Source of the DNA: Escherichia phage VEc20
Sequence record: MN022785.1
Strand: one strand, 5' to 3'
Length of the DNA: 64,000 nt
This document shows positions 2,594 through 59,913 of the stretch, piece by piece; within the stretch, counting starts at the first letter, position 1, and every line of letters begins with the position of its first letter. The notes under the pieces were generated by a model. That model had not been told where the DNA came from, searched no databases, and was given only the letters and a program-made list of their open reading frames with translations. The translations under genes were made by a program, and so were the position numbers.

Positions 2594-2857
2594 TTATTTC
2601 ATATTATTGAAATATTCTTCTGCGATTTCGTCGTTATCATGGTAAACTTTAGAAGACAGTTTAACATAACCTTCTGCTGTGAACATATTAATCACAACTT
2701 TTACAGTATACCACTGACCGTCTTCATTACCCATTACTGCGTAAGTTTCAAACATCGGATGATCAGGACCGATAACTTTAATATCATTCACTGTACGACC
2801 GAAATCTTCTGAAACGCATTTCATAAAGAAGTTGAACAGTTCGCCGTAATTATCCAT
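2594..2857 (-). CDS. hypothetical protein (87 aa)
   Basis: ORF track 2594..2911 trimmed: start MDNYGELF at 2857 lies downstream of promoter 2902-2930 and has GGAG RBS. Confidence 0.55.
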   Translation of the reverse strand: MDNYGELFNFFMKCVSEDFGRTVNDIKVIGPDHPMFETYAVMGNEDGQWYTVKVVINMFTAEGYVKLSSKVYHDNDEIAEEYFNNMK

Positions 2858-2901
2858 TTCATTCTCCAAGTTGTTTTTCTGTATCAGTAGTTGATAGTTG
2901 T

Positions 2902-2930
2902 ATAGTACCATGGAAGAACAGGGATGTAAA
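2902..2930 (-). promoter_or_regulatory. sigma70-like early promoter candidate (-35 TTTACA, 17-nt spacer, -10 TACTAT)
   Basis: plus-strand tgtaaa ... atagta upstream of ORF 2594..2857. Confidence 0.5.
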
Positions 2931-3062
2931 CAGTTTTGTGAAAAAATTTTTAAAAAGTTTTAGGGAATTCTAGGGTCAGGAGGGACAATTAAAAGGTAGG
3001 ATAATATATTATAAAGGGTATAAACTAAATGATGCCTAGAGAGACAAGGAAAGGCCTAGATA

Positions 3063-3091
3063 CCAAAAAGCCCCAACCTTTTGGTCGGGGC
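3063..3091 (-). terminator. rho-independent terminator after the internal-protein-like gene
   Basis: minus-strand hairpin AGCCCCGACC-AAAA-GGTTGGGGCT followed by TTTTTGG. Confidence 0.65.
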
Positions 3092-3099
3092 TAAGAATG

Positions 3100-3561
3100 T
3101 TATTTGATTTGTTTAGCAGACCAAATGCGGTCTTTGATGATTTTTTGGAGGTCTTCAACATACTCTAGGTCATGAGCATGTGGATTATCTTTGAAACTAT
3201 GAGCTCGCGCAAGTTTCTGGCCTTCGGTCTTAATTATCAAAAGTTCTTTAAGAATTGCTTCATACCTAGAGATAATTCCTTTAGCAATATTTTTTTCTTG
3301 TGCTGCTTTAGGGTCAGCCTTAGGAGCAGGTTTACCAGAAGGTTTTTCGAAAGCCGCGCCAGTAGCAACCAGGCTTTTCCAGGCGGTGGTAACATAGTTA
3401 CCCACAAAGCCTTCAGCTCTCATATCGTCGTAGAACTTGTACCGAGATTCGTCAGAAGCATCTTTATAAGAATATTTACCAGCTTTAATAGCAGCAGTTG
3501 CTACAGCGCGAACATCTGAAGCGGATGCTTCGGTCATTAAAAATTGAGCATAAGTTTTCAT
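3100..3561 (-). CDS. internal-protein-like late protein with capsid-targeting-type N-terminus (MKTYAQFLMTE)
   Basis: 153 aa; AGGAAA RBS; own late promoter TATAAATA upstream and rho-independent terminator downstream; N-terminus resembles T4 IP leader MKTYQEFIAE. Confidence 0.65.
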   Translation of the reverse strand: MKTYAQFLMTEASASDVRAVATAAIKAGKYSYKDASDESRYKFYDDMRAEGFVGNYVTTAWKSLVATGAAFEKPSGKPAPKADPKAAQEKNIAKGIISRYEAILKELLIIKTEGQKLARAHSFKDNPHAHDLEYVEDLQKIIKDRIWSAKQIK

Positions 3562-3589
3562 TGTTATTTCCTGTGTTAATTAACTCATC

Positions 3590-3597
3590 TATTTATA
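3590..3597 (-). promoter_or_regulatory. T4 late promoter TATAAATA (gene 3100..3561)
   Basis: plus-strand tatttata; AGGAAA RBS and ATG 29 nt downstream on minus. Confidence 0.6.
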
Positions 3598-3598
3598 C

Positions 3599-3627
3599 TA
3601 AAAAGCCCCAACCTTTCGATCGGGGCT
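3599..3627 (-). terminator. rho-independent terminator ending the tRNA/stable-RNA transcription unit
   Basis: minus-strand hairpin GCCCC...GGGGC followed by TTTTT, then the late promoter. Confidence 0.6.
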
Positions 3628-3674
3628 AAGCCTTGCGGCAACCTTGTCGGGGTTCCACCTGCTAAGGCAAGTGT

Positions 3675-3840
3675 TTGTACGAAACGCCGGGATTCGAACC
3701 CGGTTATTAAGTAGTTGACGCTACTCAATATTTTTAAAAGGCCATATCTCGACCATATCCGAACGTTCCGTCAAAAACGCTACTCGGCTTACGGCAAAGA
3801 TATTTCCTCGAATCGATAATTCGGTGCGCCGTTTCTGCTG
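3675..3840 (-). ncRNA. tRNA-like stable RNA (T4 species 1/2-like); boundaries approximate
   Basis: minus-strand T-arm CCGGG-TTCGAAT-CCCGG followed by acceptor-like CGTTTCG; complementary GAAACG about 150 nt upstream; no ORF. Confidence 0.35.
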
Positions 3841-3934
3841 TGATAGTAAAGAGCCAGAACACAGTAAAACTGTGGGAGGAAACTATACTCCAGGGAACAT
3901 CAGTCCGACGACTTACCGGTAGCGACCCGGTTTC

Positions 3935-4285
3935 TTAATATTCTTTTAAAGAATCAATATATTCACGGCGTTTACGCCACAAATCAATTGCTTCATACGC
4001 GGATTCAGCATTTCGAATTAGCCGGCATTTATGTAAAGACTTATGATTTTGATATTGTGTAGATAACGGAATTGTATCTAAAAGGTCTTTACGATCAAAA
4101 TATTCGTAACCATCTAAACCAAATGAACGATTTTTGAGAAATTGCCAATGACCATATTCGTTTTCGACATAAACATAATCTGCATGCTGATAAAGCAAAT
4201 TAATTACACGTTCAGAAATAACAGTATCATTATGATTAAAATAGAATGTTAAATCATGAACTACTAAATAAACATTACCTTTCAT
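3935..4285 (-). CDS. hypothetical protein (116 aa) embedded between tRNA-Arg and the stable RNA
   Basis: ORF with GAGGAAAAT RBS directly before ATG; no recognisable motif. Confidence 0.6.
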   Translation of the reverse strand: MKGNVYLVVHDLTFYFNHNDTVISERVINLLYQHADYVYVENEYGHWQFLKNRSFGLDGYEYFDRKDLLDTIPLSTQYQNHKSLHKCRLIRNAESAYEAIDLWRKRREYIDSLKEY

Positions 4286-4303
4286 ATTTTCCTCACTTAT
4301 AAT

Positions 4304-4379
4304 TGGTCGAGGCAGTAGGGATCGAACCTACGACCTAGGACTTAGAAGGTCCTTGCTCTTCCTTCTGAGCTATGCCCCG
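4304..4379 (-). tRNA. tRNA-Arg (anticodon TCT)
   Basis: hand-folded cloverleaf: acceptor CGGGGCA/TGCCTCG, anticodon loop CTTCTAA, T-arm GTAGG-TTCGATC-CCTAC, CCA encoded. Confidence 0.85.
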
Positions 4380-4383
4380 TAAT

Positions 4384-4459
4384 TGGGGTGACCGATGGGA
4401 GTCGAACCCATGACTACGAGAATCACAATCTCGAGTTCTACCAACTGAACTACGGCCAC
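4384..4459 (-). tRNA. tRNA-His (anticodon GTG)
   Basis: acceptor GTGGCCG/CGGTCAC, anticodon stem CGAGA/TCTCG loop TTGTGAT, T-arm ATGGG-TTCGACT-CCCAT, CCA encoded; no encoded G-1. Confidence 0.7.
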
Positions 4460-4573
4460 ATTAATACCTACTCCAACAATCAAGATGTCTTCACACGAAA
4501 TTAAGAGAAGAGTGATCAGTTCAACCCCTATAATCGCGTCAAGTAGATATTAATGTGACAGTTGTCACAAATT

Positions 4574-4648
4574 TGGCGGACGTGATAGGATTCGAACCTA
4601 TAACCAATCGCTTAACAGGCGATCGCTCTGCCATTGAGCTACACATCC
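4574..4648 (-). tRNA. tRNA-Asn (anticodon GTT)
   Basis: acceptor GGATGTG/CACGTCC, anticodon stem ATCGC/GCGAT loop CTGTTAA, T-arm ATAGG-TTCGAAT-CCTAT, CCA encoded. Confidence 0.8.
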
Positions 4649-4652
4649 AAAT

Positions 4653-4739
4653 TGGTGGGGAGTGGTGGAGTCGAACCACCCGAGTCGCAATGACAATGAA
4701 TTTACAGTCCACACCGCTACATCTACGGGATAACTCCCC
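4653..4739 (-). tRNA. tRNA-Tyr (anticodon GTA), class II with long variable arm; D-arm fold uncertain
   Basis: acceptor GGGGAGT/ACTCCCC perfect, T-arm GGTGG-TTCGACT-CCACC, anticodon loop CTGTAAA with G-U-containing stem, 87 nt. Confidence 0.55.
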
Positions 4740-4748
4740 AAATTAATT

Positions 4749-4823
4749 TGGTGGCCCTGGGTGGAATTGAACCACCATCTGGCGATTATGAGTCGCTTGC
4801 TTGAACCTTCCAGCTACAGGGCC
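4749..4823 (-). tRNA. tRNA with anticodon CAT (Met-type; probably the T4-like lysidine-modified tRNA-Ile)
   Basis: acceptor GGCCCTG/CAGGGCC, anticodon loop CTCATAA, T-arm GGTGG-TTCAATT-CCACC, CCA encoded. Confidence 0.8.
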
Positions 4824-4824
4824 T

Positions 4825-4900
4825 TGGTGCTGATTGACGGAATCGAACCGCCGACCTTCTCATTACAAGTGAGTTGCTCTACCTACTGAGCTAAATCAGC
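4825..4900 (-). tRNA. tRNA-Thr (anticodon TGT)
   Basis: acceptor GCTGATT/AATCAGC, D-arm GCTC-AGTAGGTA-GAGC, anticodon loop CTTGTAA, T-arm GGCGG-TTCGATT-CCGTC. Confidence 0.85.
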
Positions 4901-4905
4901 AAAAC

Positions 4906-4995
4906 TGGCGGAGGCGATAGGATTTGAACCTATGAGTCGCCGGAGCGACTGCCGGTTTTCAAGACCGGTGCATTAAACCACTCTGCCACGCCTCC
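4906..4995 (-). tRNA. tRNA-Ser (anticodon TGA), class II
   Basis: acceptor GGAGGCG/CGCCTCC, anticodon stem CCGGT/ACCGG loop CTTGAAA, long variable arm, T-arm ATAGG-TTCAAAT-CCTAT. Confidence 0.85.
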
Positions 4996-4997
4996 AG

Positions 4998-5071
4998 TCT
5001 CCGTGGCAGGATTTGAACCTACGACATTCTGCTCCCAAAGCAGACGCTCTACCAAACTGAGCTACACGGAG
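4998..5071 (-). tRNA. tRNA-Pro (anticodon TGG); CCA not encoded
   Basis: acceptor CTCCGTG/CACGGAG, anticodon stem TCTGC/GCAGA loop TTTGGGA, T-arm GTAGG-TTCAAAT-CCTGC. Confidence 0.8.
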
Positions 5072-5081
5072 TAAATTAAAT

Positions 5082-5155
<74 letters not shown>

Positions 5156-5160
5156 AAATT

Positions 5161-5247
5161 TGGTGCGAGAAGTGGGACTCGAACCCACAAGGAAATCATT
5201 CCGCAGCATTTTAAGTGCTGTGCCTTTACCAATTTGACCATTCTCGC
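5161..5247 (-). tRNA. tRNA-Leu (anticodon TAA), class II
   Basis: acceptor GCGAGAA/TTCTCGC, anticodon stem CAGCA/TGCTG loop CTTAAAA, T-arm GTGGG-TTCGAGT-CCCAC, 87 nt. Confidence 0.85.
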
Positions 5248-5248
5248 G

Positions 5249-5321
5249 CTGGGAATAAAGGACTCGAACCTTTGCATCTAGCAGTCAAAGTGCTATGCCT
5301 TACCAACTTGGCTAATTCCCA
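5249..5321 (-). tRNA. tRNA-Gln (anticodon TTG); CCA not encoded
   Basis: acceptor TGGGAAT/ATTCCCA (U1-A72), anticodon stem TAGCA/TGCTA loop CTTTGAC, T-arm AAAGG-TTCGAGT-CCTTT. Confidence 0.8.
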
Positions 5322-5390
5322 ATTATTAACAAAGGCTCTCTAACAAGAACCCTTGATGATAGAGGGTATTAATCAGTGCGGTATGAGTTA

Positions 5391-5416
5391 ATAATAACAA
5401 ATAATTCTTAAAGCAT
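5391..5416 (-). promoter_or_regulatory. candidate T4 middle-type promoter (MotA box ATGCTTTA, 12-nt spacer, -10 TATTAT) upstream of the tRNA array
   Basis: minus-strand TATGCTTTAAGAATTATTTGTTATTAT about 65 nt upstream of tRNA-Gln 5' end. Confidence 0.35.
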
Positions 5417-5418
5417 AT

Positions 5419-5706
5419 TTACCATTTATGATAATACGTATTTACGATACATTCAAGACCCAAAGGATTCTTGAAAATATTATATTCAAGAGGACCTTTT
5501 TCCGTTTCAATAAAGAAATCAAAGTTAACTGTGTTAAATTTACGGTCTTCCTTCACTAATTTAACTTGAGAAGATGAACGGTCAATGTAAACCTTTTCAA
5601 CTTCAAAACAGGTTAAAATGCCATAATCATCAATCAAGGCTTTAGCTGCTTCTTGATCATATTTATATCCATTTTCAATGGATGATACTTTAGCATAAAG
5701 AATCAT
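5419..5706 (-). CDS. hypothetical protein (95 aa)
   Basis: ORF track; start overlaps stop of upstream ORF (coupled); no recognisable motif, no capsid-targeting leader. Confidence 0.55.
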   Translation of the reverse strand: MILYAKVSSIENGYKYDQEAAKALIDDYGILTCFEVEKVYIDRSSSQVKLVKEDRKFNTVNFDFFIETEKGPLEYNIFKNPLGLECIVNTYYHKW

Positions 5707-55378: not shown

Positions 55379-55382
55379 CAAC

Positions 55383-55412
55383 GGGGACCTTTCGGTCCCC
55401 ATATTTTTATTT
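55383..55412 (+). terminator. rho-independent terminator after gene 54
   Basis: hairpin GGGGACCTTTCGGTCCCC followed by ATATTTTTATTT. Confidence 0.65.
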
Positions 55413-55697
55413 GCGGAATGAAATGAAAGCAGAAACTGAAGCAACTAAACTGTCTTCAATATAAACTTCAATTTTTACCGGAGCTTCTGACTCAAATTTA
55501 CCTGTTACTACACCCTGAAAAATACTTTCAGTCTGTTCTGGCTTTGAAAAATTTTCAGAAGGAAAAATTCCGAACTTTTTATCTGTTCCAAAAATTTTAA
55601 TAAATTCATCGTAAACCGCTTCGTTAAAAGCATTATCAGCAGGAATAACGCCTTCAACTACAAGTTCTTGACCTAAAAAGCGTAAAGAAGATTTCAT
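55407..55697 (-). CDS. hypothetical protein (96 aa)
   Basis: ORF track; downstream of alt-like fragments. Confidence 0.55.
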   Translation of the reverse strand: MKSSLRFLGQELVVEGVIPADNAFNEAVYDEFIKIFGTDKKFGIFPSENFSKPEQTESIFQGVVTGKFESEAPVKIEVYIEDSLVASVSAFISFRK

Positions 55698-55729
55698 TTT
55701 GTGTTCCTCATGTTATGTCAGTAAGACTA

Positions 55730-56115
55730 CTATAACACAACACGAGGGACTTGTAAACTACATTTTGAACTTTTTAGTACGCGGAATAGGCATGCGTCGA
55801 TTTTATACTGTTTCATTGTTTGAAGAGCAGTATCAAAAACAGCATTAATGACACCAATTGGATTTCCACTCAAGTTTTTAAGCTTAACTAATGATAGTTT
55901 CTCATTAACACCTATCATTACGATATGCATCATTTTATCGCCTGGTTTAACGTTTTATTTGTATCACCGTCAGAGGTGTATGTACAAAATCTAAATCCAG
56001 GAAGTACGCTTTCTTCACCGGCTTGAATAGCAAAAATTTGAGGTATTTTATGCTTAGGATTTAAGTTAACAACCGGCGCCGAAGCGCCGTCAAATAATTC
56101 TGTAATAAGTTCCAT
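55730..56115 (-). pseudogene. truncated, frameshifted duplicate of the alt N-terminal region (two ORFs, 61 and 67 aa)
   Basis: ORF 55930..56115 aligns to Alt residues 2-56 and ORF 55730..55933 to Alt residues about 64-125, in different frames. Confidence 0.7.
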
Positions 56116-56118
56116 GAT

Positions 56119-58215
56119 TTATCCTTGAACGAACTTGTAAGGCATGTTTGTAATATCTATGCAAGACGCAATAATTCCAAGAGATGATTCGACTTTCTGT
56201 TTAACATTTGATGAAACAAATGATGCAAAATCAACTCTATCTTCTATTTCAATATCACCAGTCATTGCAACTACTTCACCAGTTTCCATTAGACGGTCAC
56301 CGTCATAAATTACTGATTCGGTGAGTTCTTCCGTAGTCATAACTTCAGCTTGAATGAGTTTTGTATTATTAGATGTTGTTCCGTCGTTATTAGAAGCATC
56401 AGTTATTTTATTGACTTTGACCATCAATCCACGCGGTAGAATAACTTCAGCTTCTGTTGCTATTCCGAGACTTCCTGGATATACAACATTAACTTTATGA
56501 GCTCCATCAATTGCCCATCCTATTTGAACTTTAACGTATTCAGGATTTTCTTTATACGCTCTTATTTCGTTTGGATTAATAGTTATTCCTTCTTCATTTT
56601 TATCAACTGTTAATTCATTGCGAGCTTCTGGTTCTAAAAGACCAATACCAGCATGTGTAATTCCAAAACGTCCAAAAATGATAGGAGTTAAAGAAGTAGA
56701 TACAAAATTTCTGAAATAGAATACTTTATTTTTAACTAGTGCTTCGTATATAGGAGCAGTCATACTTTGAGCACGATAAACTGTAATGCCTTCTGGTATA
56801 CGATCACCATTTTCAAAAGCAGAATCTAAATTAGTTATAGCAGCTTCAATTTCTTTTTCACTCATTACTTCATAACGTTCTGGATCATAACGACCCAAAA
56901 GAAGATTATTGATGTCAGTATATCCTGAACCGCAATACTCTCTAATGCCACGCTTTTGTGATGGAGTATATTTAGAACCATCACGGGCAATAGTAATATC
57001 AATCATTGGACCTGCACCAATTCCAGAGAAACTATAAATCATTCTTTTGAGGAATTTAGTTTTTGTCGCGTTCCAGGAATTTTTAGTTATTTCTTCCCAG
57101 ACTTCATCTGGCTGTCCTTTACGGGTTTTATTATGTTTATCAAGCCAAGTATCTTTATATTCTTCAAATAATTGATTAACAGCTGCTGCGTATTTCTCTA
57201 AACATTTTATTGAAGTAGTCGGTTCATTTTTAATCGCATTAAGAATTACATCTTTAATTTTTTCAGAAACTTCATTAACCTCACTTTTTGAAAAGAATTT
57301 ATAGTCATAATGAAGTTCATCTGCAGTTCCTTCGGCAATGATTTTTGCTGCCTTAGTTTTAGAAGCTAATGAATTAATTCCAATTTTCATTTCTTCTGCT
57401 TCGGGAATTAAAGGTGCAGTAGCTGGTTTATTAAAATTAGCTGCTGTAGATTCATACTTCTGGAATAATTCACTTTCAAATCTAGAAGACTCTAATGATT
57501 GACTTTGTGCAATTGCTCTACGGGAAATTTTAACTTTAACGATTACAGCTTGGTCAGAACGTTTATCATTTTCTTGTGCAATAGATGCTGCAATTGCCTC
57601 ATTTTTAGTTACTTGAGCTCCAGTATCTTTATTGATATAAACATCACCGACCTTCGATTCAACTTTAGTAAAGAGCTCGGTACTAATTTCCGGAACCCCT
57701 GGAATGTCTTCTAGTGATACATTTTTGCGATGTATAAGAATATATGCATACTTTTTATCATAATCCCAGAGTTCCTTAAGAAGGACGTATCTGCCACCTG
57801 AACGACTACGGATAAGTCTATCAGCAATAACTTGAATTTGTCGAGCTTGACCAGCAGTTTTAGACTTAAGAATACGGAGCATACAGGCATCAATTTTATA
57901 CTGACGCATTGTTTGCATTGCAACAGTAAAAACCGAATTGATATAATTAATTGGGCTTGGACCAAGACCTTTCAATTTAGCAATTGAACCTTTAGCGGTT
58001 AATGTAAAAGGAACAATATGCATCATTTTATCGCCCATCTTTAAATCACGATTAGTATCACCTCCAGATGTATAGGTACATAAACGAAAGCCTGGTTGTT
58101 CAATTGCATCATCAACATGAACTGAAAAAATTTGTGGTATTTTCTTCTTTGGATTTAAGTTTGTAATCGGAAGAGTAGTATCTTCGTCAAATAATTCTGT
58201 AATTAGTTCCATCAT
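56119..58215 (-). CDS. alt: Alt ADP-ribosyltransferase (virion-packaged, injected)
   Basis: 698 aa (T4 682); R-S-E ART motif elements (YRAQS, FVSTS, ATEAEVILP); late promoter upstream. Confidence 0.9.
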   Translation of the reverse strand: MMELITELFDEDTTLPITNLNPKKKIPQIFSVHVDDAIEQPGFRLCTYTSGGDTNRDLKMGDKMMHIVPFTLTAKGSIAKLKGLGPSPINYINSVFTVAMQTMRQYKIDACMLRILKSKTAGQARQIQVIADRLIRSRSGGRYVLLKELWDYDKKYAYILIHRKNVSLEDIPGVPEISTELFTKVESKVGDVYINKDTGAQVTKNEAIAASIAQENDKRSDQAVIVKVKISRRAIAQSQSLESSRFESELFQKYESTAANFNKPATAPLIPEAEEMKIGINSLASKTKAAKIIAEGTADELHYDYKFFSKSEVNEVSEKIKDVILNAIKNEPTTSIKCLEKYAAAVNQLFEEYKDTWLDKHNKTRKGQPDEVWEEITKNSWNATKTKFLKRMIYSFSGIGAGPMIDITIARDGSKYTPSQKRGIREYCGSGYTDINNLLLGRYDPERYEVMSEKEIEAAITNLDSAFENGDRIPEGITVYRAQSMTAPIYEALVKNKVFYFRNFVSTSLTPIIFGRFGITHAGIGLLEPEARNELTVDKNEEGITINPNEIRAYKENPEYVKVQIGWAIDGAHKVNVVYPGSLGIATEAEVILPRGLMVKVNKITDASNNDGTTSNNTKLIQAEVMTTEELTESVIYDGDRLMETGEVVAMTGDIEIEDRVDFASFVSSNVKQKVESSLGIIASCIDITNMPYKFVQG

Positions 58216-58235: not shown

Positions 58236-58243
58236 TATTTATA
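58236..58243 (-). promoter_or_regulatory. T4 late promoter TATAAATA (alt)
   Basis: plus-strand tatttata; GAGAGGAT RBS and alt ATG about 20 nt downstream on minus. Confidence 0.6.
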
Positions 58244-58264: not shown

Positions 58265-58453
58265 TTAGTAATCTAGTGGTAAGAGAGTACGATATATTTC
58301 AAACTTTGGTCCTTTTTCATAGGCATCAAATGTTTCTGTAAATTTATTATAAGCGTATGCATCTACAAATTCGAGAATGACTTGTGATACAGAAGTAGAA
58401 ACATCTCCACCTTCTTTTTGAGCAATGACAATTGTTTCTAAGTAAGCTTTCAT
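58265..58453 (-). CDS. hypothetical protein (62 aa)
   Basis: ORF track; coupled to gene 30 stop. Confidence 0.55.
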   Translation of the reverse strand: MKAYLETIVIAQKEGGDVSTSVSQVILEFVDAYAYNKFTETFDAYEKGPKFEIYRTLLPLDY

Positions 58454-59913
58454 AGACCAGTTACCTCATGAAAATCACCAAATACATCCTCGAATGTATT
58501 AGCTTTAGTTTTATCTTCACGTAAACGAATCGCAATCGGAAGAAATAATTTAACGTAATCAGTGCGGCCATCAGATTTTAACCAACCGTTGCATTCGCAC
58601 TCTAGAATTTTTCCAATATAATAATTTTGGTTTTCCATAATGCGAGTACGGTCAAGTTCATGTGATTTTACACCGGCTTTATCTTTTAAGCCTGAACCAG
58701 CATTTACCTTAATTTTTCCACACTCTGACTCAAGAATAAATCCACCCGCTTTAGTAGGGTCTTTACGGTGAGGATAAATTCCTACAATTTTTAAATCAAC
58801 ATCAATTACTTCTTTAAATTTATAGAGATTTTTTGAACGAGCATTTTCCCATAATCCATCGATATTTTTGAGAATAATACCTTCAAGACCTTGGTCAATA
58901 TACTTTTTATAAATTACCTTAGCTTCATCTAGGTTATTTACTACCTGGTTTTCAATTAAAATTACTTTATCATAGCCTGATGTCATTTGTTCTAGTTTAG
59001 AAAAACGTACATCATATTTTAAACGAAACGCCGGAAGACCGTATATTTCTACCAACGGGACATAATCCCAGACCTGAAACTTCATGCATTGAGCTTCTTT
59101 TTCGGAAATGGTTCCCTTTAAAGATTTATTAGCGATTCCATTAGAAGTAGTACGTGATTCAGCTACTTCGGCGAATTCTTTGGCTTTACTAATTTCAGGA
59201 TAAGCATCAAAAAGAAAATCTAGGCCTTCTGGCTCCTTTTTAACTTGCTCATGGTATACCAATTCGCCATCAATTAACACGCCTTCTGGATGAATCTGGC
59301 GGGCTTCAGCGGTCATTTTGATTAATTCTTCCTTAAGAAGATCTAATCCTAGATATTCATTACCGGCTCGTGATAAAAGACGAACATCATCTAATTCATC
59401 ACCTCTGACTTCGGCAAAGCACCGAGCCCCATCAGCTTTTAACTGGGCAAAGGCTGGAAATTTGATATTCTTATTAATGCCTTTTTCATCATAAGAACTT
59501 GCCAGCATTTGAGGTTGTTCAGGAATTAAACCTGGCCAAACTTTGTTTGCAATAGATACTGAAGCACCACATTCAAGGTCTCGCATCATCACTCGACGCA
59601 AAACTTCAACATCATCTTTTTTACCATCGGTGATATATCCAGTTAATTCCTCAATTGCTGCATTTCCAGTCAATTTCCGAGTAGCTAATGTGAATTCAAT
59701 GAAGTCAAGCATATCGGTAAGAGTCAACATTCCAAAACTCTGGGTAGCAATACCAGGTTTAGGCCATTTCTTGATATAATACTGCAGCCCACGAGAATAA
59801 GTCAGACGATATACTCGTTTAAGCAATTCATTATCTTTATTCTTTTCAAGAATTGCTTGCTTCTGCTTAGTTGAACCAATAGATGCTATTTCGTTCAGAA
59901 TTTTAAGAATCAT
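58450..59913 (-). CDS. 30: ATP-dependent DNA ligase
   Basis: 487 aa as T4 DNA ligase; adenylation motif KADGAR. Confidence 0.95.
   Translation of the reverse strand: MILKILNEIASIGSTKQKQAILEKNKDNELLKRVYRLTYSRGLQYYIKKWPKPGIATQSFGMLTLTDMLDFIEFTLATRKLTGNAAIEELTGYITDGKKDDVEVLRRVMMRDLECGASVSIANKVWPGLIPEQPQMLASSYDEKGINKNIKFPAFAQLKADGARCFAEVRGDELDDVRLLSRAGNEYLGLDLLKEELIKMTAEARQIHPEGVLIDGELVYHEQVKKEPEGLDFLFDAYPEISKAKEFAEVAESRTTSNGIANKSLKGTISEKEAQCMKFQVWDYVPLVEIYGLPAFRLKYDVRFSKLEQMTSGYDKVILIENQVVNNLDEAKVIYKKYIDQGLEGIILKNIDGLWENARSKNLYKFKEVIDVDLKIVGIYPHRKDPTKAGGFILESECGKIKVNAGSGLKDKAGVKSHELDRTRIMENQNYYIGKILECECNGWLKSDGRTDYVKLFLPIAIRLREDKTKANTFEDVFGDFHEVTGL

Follow-up and report, generated by a model that had tools for sequence, protein, structure and literature searches.

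The two short reading frames downstream of alt in a T4-like phage are probably the decaying stub of a deleted full-length alt paralog

What are the two short open reading frames that lie directly behind alt, the gene of a packaged ADP-ribosyltransferase, in phage T4? In the T4 genome they are named alt.-1 (T4p199) and alt.-2 (T4p198), and the GenBank record states that 'alt.-1 and alt.-2 together reflect an old duplication of the first part of gene alt, into which a stop codon and new ...'. Nolan et al. 2006 placed them among the paralogous duplications of alt (PMC1524935). Their similarity to the start of alt is thus already known from these two sources. We analysed the same locus in a stretch of 64,000 nt from Escherichia phage VEc20 (MN022785.1), called the window below, which comes from a Tequatrovirus, a T4-like phage. 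A sequence-only reading of this DNA had taken the two frames for a decayed or programmed-frameshift copy of the Alt N-terminal region, either a pseudogene marking a past tandem duplication or a source of small peptides that are still made and packaged.

The locus has the following order on the minus strand: ligase gp30 (58450-59913), alt.1 (58265-58453), alt (56119-58215), the two short ORFs and alt.-3 (55407-55697), with genes 54 and 48 on the plus strand as the 3′ neighbours beyond alt.-3. The alt gene, annotated as such in T4 and relatives, is the functional paralog that the short ORFs resemble; residues 379-628 of its product match Pfam PF03496 (ADPrib_exo_Tox, E = 1.9e-36). Its protein in the window has 698 aa and starts with MMELITE. 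The proteins of relatives range from 683 to 698 aa (for example 695, 685 and 683 aa at loci L003, L006 and L009), so that alt itself is length-polymorphic. The 96-aa product of alt.-3 was considered as a further piece of the duplication and rejected, having no similarity to Alt and belonging to a family of its own, DUF5498; alt.-3 is a conserved neighbour gene outside the duplication. Mutations by which T4 escapes the CmdTAC defence map to alt.-3 and give C-terminal extensions of Alt.-3 (PMC11618068). Plus-strand ORFs of 49, 48 and 33 aa across the region are antisense to conserved coding sequence and were treated as chance occurrences. Rfam, searched at gathering thresholds, returned no family in the region and its hits in the rest of the window were all tRNAs, of which 10 genes form a cluster at 4307-5321 on the minus strand. 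T4 has 8 tRNA genes.

ORF1, the equivalent of T4 alt.-1, encodes 61 aa at 55930-56115, and ORF2, the equivalent of alt.-2, encodes 67 aa at 55730-55933. Both lie on the minus strand in different frames, ORF2 being in the -1 frame relative to ORF1, and both align in order to Alt, as the sequence-only reading had described. By BLASTP, ORF1 matched Alt residues 2-63 with 58% identity (E = 8.5e-22) and residues 1-55 of ORF2 matched Alt 64-118, also with 58% identity (E = 3e-19). The match had been thought to extend to about residue 125; the similarity held, but it stops near residue 118, and nothing in Alt corresponds to the C-terminal 12 residues of ORF2 (SKCSLQVPRVVL). Alignment of the DNA at 55730-56115 with the start of alt at 57830-58215, named beforehand as the test that could decide against the homology, gave 257 identical positions in 396 columns (65%), a score 19 standard deviations over shuffled sequences (n = 300). 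The fused 128-aa remnant had no match in Pfam and no ADP-ribosyltransferase domain was found in it; what it shares with Alt is homology to the N-terminus, at 58% to residues 2-63 and 64-118. Over the 421 bp that contain ORF1 and ORF2, the window shares 100% identity with Escherichia phage UoN_LDJ77_1 and 98% with T4. In T4 the locus, the ORFs of 61 and 67 aa, and the junction and frameshift described below are all the same as in the window. The differences are a few substitutions, the window having G49D and G83S and keeping F111.

Scanning viral contigs with the two ORFs joined, we found loci in which the match runs in one continuous frame. Yersinia phage ZN18 (L005) has a 685-aa ORF directly after alt (3001-5058), which starts MELITELFDGASAPVVNLNPKHKIPQIFAIQAGEES...TNKNVKPGDKMMHIVMIGVNEK..., that is, with ORF1 and ORF2 in one frame. 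An intact 685-aa paralog directly after alt was present in ZN18, T2, T6, RB32, RB18, phiD1, Shfl2, G29 and JK08, and each of the 10 intact paralogs examined is an uninterrupted ORF of 685 codons. The long paralog carries PF03496 at residues 416-620 (E = 2e-20) and is 42% identical to Alt over its full length, and its catalytic motifs (Arg, S-T-S and E-x-E) line up with those of Alt. The block best conserved between Alt and the paralog comprises roughly residues 1-235, of which the remnant spans only about half. Joined ORF1 and ORF2 are 93% identical to the N-terminus of the intact paralog. In T2, T6, RB32 (where it is annotated alt.-2), RB18, Shfl2 and phiD1 the full-length gene occupies the orthologous locus between alt and alt.-3, and its first 116 codons are 93-98% identical to ORF1 and ORF2 of the window read in one frame. 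The full-length product has 685 aa with PF03496 intact, whereas the window lacks codons 117-682 and carries a frameshift in a run of A residues. In the comparison with T4 alt.-1/alt.-2 and with intact alt paralogs of relatives, as had been suggested, T4 has the same two ORFs and most relatives have the 685-aa gene. The two frames are not a duplicate of the N-terminus only, as first read, but the 5′ stub of a 685-aa paralog that is intact in about 80% of relatives.

Since an IMG/VR scan gave only five loci, the population sample was taken from GenBank phage records. With the long gene as query and at least 80% of it required to be covered in one piece, the full-length gene was present in 402 of 498 matching records (∼80%), including T2, T6, RB32, RB18, RB3, RB5 and RB6. 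When the query was the contiguous alt end, remnant and alt.-3 of the window, the contiguous T4-type remnant was found in 90 of 502 records. The T4-type remnant is therefore a minority, derived state.

The way in which the stub arose was examined in a comparison set of 19 remnant-bearing and 10 intact sequences, the 19 having been partly picked for length variants. BLASTN of the window against ZN18 gave two blocks, one pairing window 56330-55769 with 2786-3348 (96% identity, one gap of 1 nt), the other pairing window 55777-55380 with 5039-5436 (95% identity). The blocks are colinear and overlap by 9 nt, CTAAAAAGT; the copy in the window shares 96% identity with the paralog over the latter's first 348 nt, and 95% over its last 20 nt and the DNA downstream. 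This 9-nt sequence occurs twice, 1699 bp apart, in all 10 intact genes inspected (as a perfect 9/9 repeat in T2, T6, RB32, Shfl2, JK08 and L006) and once in the remnants. The single copy in the window, at 55769-55777 on the minus strand, is the deletion junction: it is bordered on the left like the first repeat and on the right like the second, and the 1699 bp deleted between the repeats span the catalytic domain of the paralog. The junction was identical in 19 of 19 remnants, suggesting that the deletion happened only once. Since 1699 is not divisible by three, the reading frame beyond the junction bypasses the stop codon of the long gene. Intact genes end MSKKFKM*, and a relic of these last codons and the former stop (..TTC AAA ATG TAG) lies out of frame inside ORF2 at 55758-55768, with the old TAG at 55758-55760; the ORF2 frame ends 10 codons beyond. 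Codons 1-55 of ORF2 thus represent ancestral paralog codons 62-116 and its last 12 are out-of-frame read-through.

The division into two frames has a separate cause. Alignments showed that an A4 run at 55953-55956 (minus strand) is A5 in intact paralogs, a 1-nt deletion that splits the copy. All 10 intact genes keep A5, as do the truncated copies of AV121, SG1 and AV119. Codons 1-53 of ORF1 follow the ancestral frame of the lost paralog, and codons 54-61 are out of frame after the deletion. ORF1 ends and ORF2 begins in an ATGA overlap at 55930-55933 (stop TGA, start ATG), where the intact paralog reads GDKMMHIV. The ATG ATG at this place is formed by the ancestral Met62 and Met63 codons; the overlap is therefore a by-product of the frameshift, and neither it nor the 'new start' of ORF2 needs an adaptive explanation.

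That only the first part of alt was ever duplicated, as the T4 record words it, or that the RB32-type long gene is an insertion into alt.-2, as the RB32 record suggests ('apparent insertion in alt.-2'), is almost certainly wrong. The missing 1699 bp are colinear and homologous with the rest of alt, including the catalytic domain, which an unrelated insertion would not give. In addition, the 9-bp repeat, with two copies in the long genes and one in the stub, is the signature of a deletion, and the ORF2 tail reads out of frame through the stop of the long gene. Together these features show a deletion and not an insertion. The origin of alt.-1/alt.-2 by deletion from a full-length paralog is a new result that refines the T4 note, in which it is absent. 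We infer that events took place in the order of duplication, deletion and loss of an A. A T-even ancestor would have duplicated the whole of alt in tandem, and the second copy would have diverged to ∼42% identity while staying an intact 685-aa ADP-ribosyltransferase gene in most Tequatrovirus. In the lineage of T4 and the window, recombination or slippage between the two copies of CTAAAAAGT would have removed 1699 bp, equal to codons 117-682, leaving the 3′ end out of frame, past the old stop and into the alt.-3 promoter region. Later loss of one A from the A5 run would have converted the 128-codon stub into ORFs of 61 and 67 codons, ORF1 then ending at the first stop of the shifted frame and ORF2 beginning at the ancestral Met62/Met63. 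The single 128-aa ORF of AV121 presumably represents the state just after the large deletion.

Many remnants have decayed further. Among the 19, a sample in which lesion frequencies are biased since it was partly chosen for length variants, both ORFs are present in nine, including T4 and the window, ORF2 is kept in 16, and codon 6 of ORF1 (Glu6) has changed from GAA to a TAA stop in nine. Some remnants with the codon-6 stop also have a broken ORF2, by a 1-nt deletion in CE1 and IME537 and by a 7-nt duplication in HY03, the last to be taken with caution because indel errors in that assembly are possible. In SG1 and AV119 the stop at codon 6 occurs together with an A5 run that is still complete, and AV121, with A5 and no stop, retains the 128-aa ORF. 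A count free of the length-variant selection was obtained with a 45-nt probe centred on the stop variant, a match requiring a 28-nt exact word that spans the variant. This probe matched 45 records, and all that could be cross-checked were of the remnant type. With 45 of ∼90, about half of the remnant-bearing records are unable to make Alt.-1. In HY03 (NC_031047) alt itself is present as short ORFs and several 'hypothetical proteins' are annotated on the opposite strand.

We also compared selection on the 116 codons shared by the two groups, reading them in the ancestral frame and polarising private variants against the intact consensus. Of the segregating changes in intact genes, 35 were synonymous and 1 was nonsynonymous (pN/pS 0.01), and remnants had 20 synonymous, 12 nonsynonymous and 1 stop. 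Because many synonymous variants are common to both groups, private variants were counted separately; given recombination among these phages, the counts are of variants and not of independent events. Variants private to the remnants comprised 12 nonsynonymous or stop and 3 synonymous changes, with omega about 1.1 and no departure from neutrality. Those private to intact genes comprised 0 nonsynonymous or stop and 18 synonymous changes (Fisher p = 1.3e-6 versus remnants). The remnant-private changes lie mostly in the ORF1 part (10 versus 3), the ORF2 part having only two, both nonsynonymous and too few to be judged alone. Over its first 116 codons the intact paralog is under very strong purifying selection. 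An intact ortholog at the same locus in relatives, disabling lesions in the copy, and relaxed selection with further lesions are the marks of a pseudogene, and all were found here. We put at about 90% the probability that the region is a pseudogene, the neutrally decaying stub of a deleted full-length alt paralog, with no function kept by selection. The proposal of the sequence-only reading that the copy is decayed and marks a past tandem duplication of alt is supported.

A decaying stub may still be expressed. A pattern search located a T4-type late promoter motif, TATAAATA, at 58236-58243 on the minus strand, 20 nt ahead of the alt start codon; no second one occurs from there to the terminator after alt.-3, and alt has been classed as late (PMC9697503). 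The end of the alt unit is a G+C-rich hairpin, GGGGACC-GAAA-GGTCCCC, at 55381-55402 between the convergent alt.-3 and gene 54, which scores as a terminator on both strands. Terminators are annotated at its place in phages e11/2 and G29. The loop and adjacent bases of the hairpin vary between relatives. No minus-strand terminator-like site was found between alt and ORF1, ORF2 or alt.-3. ORF1 starts 3 nt after the alt stop, with the Shine-Dalgarno sequence AAGGA that is the paralog's ribosome-binding site. From a single unit without an internal terminator and with this AAGGA, transcription of the stub and some translation would be expected; any peptides made from it would probably be inert. alt.-3 appears to have a promoter of its own, predicted to be of the sigma-70 type (TTTACA, 17 nt, TATAGT, with TG; 10/12 in a consensus scan), at 55729-55757 on the minus strand, within the final part of ORF2. 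The annotation of phage Lutter has a promoter at this position, and in phages of the intact type the promoter sequence is intergenic. In T4, both RNA and protein of alt.-3 are early (PMC9697503).

Two readings would give the short ORFs a present function. According to one of them, a 128-aa protein of the Alt N-terminal domain is restored by a programmed -1 frameshift at A_AAA_TGA (55930-55936) or by tight coupling of translation. ORF2 does lie in the -1 frame, a Lys-tRNA on AAA can slip back by one base and pair again within A AAA beside the stop, the shifted product (...AIK-MMHIV) would be colinear with Alt (...GDK-MMHIV), and AV121 encodes such a 128-aa ORF without any shift. However, the site is nothing more than inherited coding sequence, GAT AAA ATG ATG, which intact genes share without change. 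An X_XXY_YYZ heptamer is absent from the window's sequence, GCG ATA AAA TGA, on which only a single-tRNA A_AAA slip is possible, and the 76 nt around and after the site (55900-55975) fold with -8.8 kcal/mol (z = 0.47), no better than shuffled sequences. The codon-6 stop lies upstream of the site in about half of the remnant genomes, and remnant substitutions are neutral. Nor was the two-frame arrangement with an open upstream frame conserved in the comparison set, AV121, SG1 and AV119 having the copy in one frame. With no heptamer, no downstream RNA structure and an upstream frame closed in about half of the genomes, we consider a programmed-frameshift copy very unlikely.

According to the other reading, ORF1 and ORF2 are maintained small-protein genes, for example for prohead-targeted peptides or for products that modulate the packaging or activity of Alt. 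T4, the window and seven other sampled genomes have both ORFs intact, ORF1 retains the ribosome-binding site of the paralog together with MELITE, the sequence cleaved from Alt, and the Alt N-terminal region is conserved in about 1200 Straboviridae records. Time-resolved omics of T4 infection detected RNA over alt.-1/alt.-2 and classed the transcripts as 'middle', but the protein class is NA, meaning undetected (PMC9697503 Table S2). In this one study of infected cells, the proteins detected included Alt.-3 and many others of 40-70 aa (PMC9697503 Table S2). ORF1 is inactivated by the stop at codon 6 in 45 records, roughly one half of the remnant genomes, and ORF2 is independently frameshifted in HY03, CE1 and IME537. 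Remnant-specific changes (12 nonsynonymous or stop, 3 synonymous) also differ from those of intact genes (0 and 18), and the stub holds only about half of the N-terminal block (∼1-235) conserved between Alt and the paralog. Maintenance as small-protein genes is therefore quite unlikely, and the stop in about half of the remnants, the neutral substitutions and the non-detection in the T4 proteome speak against small peptides that are still made and packaged. The pseudogene remains our preferred reading of both ORFs.

The expectation that the Alt N-terminus serves in packaging was nevertheless reasonable, considering its conservation and its 6-residue processing. Alt is a scaffolding-core protein with about 40 copies per head, from which the prohead protease removes a small N-terminal peptide; targeting of core proteins other than IPII and IPIII has been described as unresolved (PMC9958956). 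In X15811, the first record of alt, a feature reads '6 amino acids cleaved off'; this fits MELITE followed by LFD, and the remnant keeps this sequence exactly. The N-terminal 160 residues of Alt show 30-40% identity across about 1200 Straboviridae records, and a role of the N-terminus in capsid targeting is plausible from these sequence features. A PDB search gave only distant matches to ADP-ribosyltransferase domains, none of them for the Alt N-terminus. Since the stub retains the paralog's ribosome-binding site and the prohead-protease propeptide MELITE, it could be translated where the frames are open (the window, T4 and especially AV121) and enter the scaffolding core as a natural 'minimal cargo'. 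We regard this as decidedly unlikely; if true, it would show which part of Alt suffices for capsid targeting.

Alt paralogs adjoining alt have been described in more distant T4-like phages of other genera, where 44RR ORF187c is full-length and 44RR ORF188c and RB49 ORF183c are partial (PMC1524935). As described there, these resemble the present locus in being tandem paralogs beside alt, in both complete and partial form. Copies of alt that are split or fragmentary are also seen in Acinetobacter phage Henu6 and Klebsiella phage vB_Kpn_AM_K5; such copies are annotated 'putative split RNA polymerase ADP-ribosylase' or match residues 1-86 only. Break-up of alt paralogs may be recurrent across Straboviridae. 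An impression from the tables is that remnant-bearing genomes measure ∼168-172 kb and those with the intact paralog ∼165-168 kb. As an impression only, this trend would be in keeping with a dispensable 1.7-kb gene having been lost under pressure from headful packaging.

Beyond annotation the finding carries little weight. The alt.-1 and alt.-2 'hypothetical proteins', spread through hundreds of T4-like annotations, would more aptly be described as what remains of a second alt-like ADP-ribosyltransferase gene that has been deleted. It follows that T4 is without an enzyme that T2, T6 and most relatives encode. The intact paralog is the biologically interesting object, and our literature search found no description of its targets or of its packaging. 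The locus itself is a clean natural example, in a lytic phage, of a microhomology-mediated deletion followed by neutral decay.
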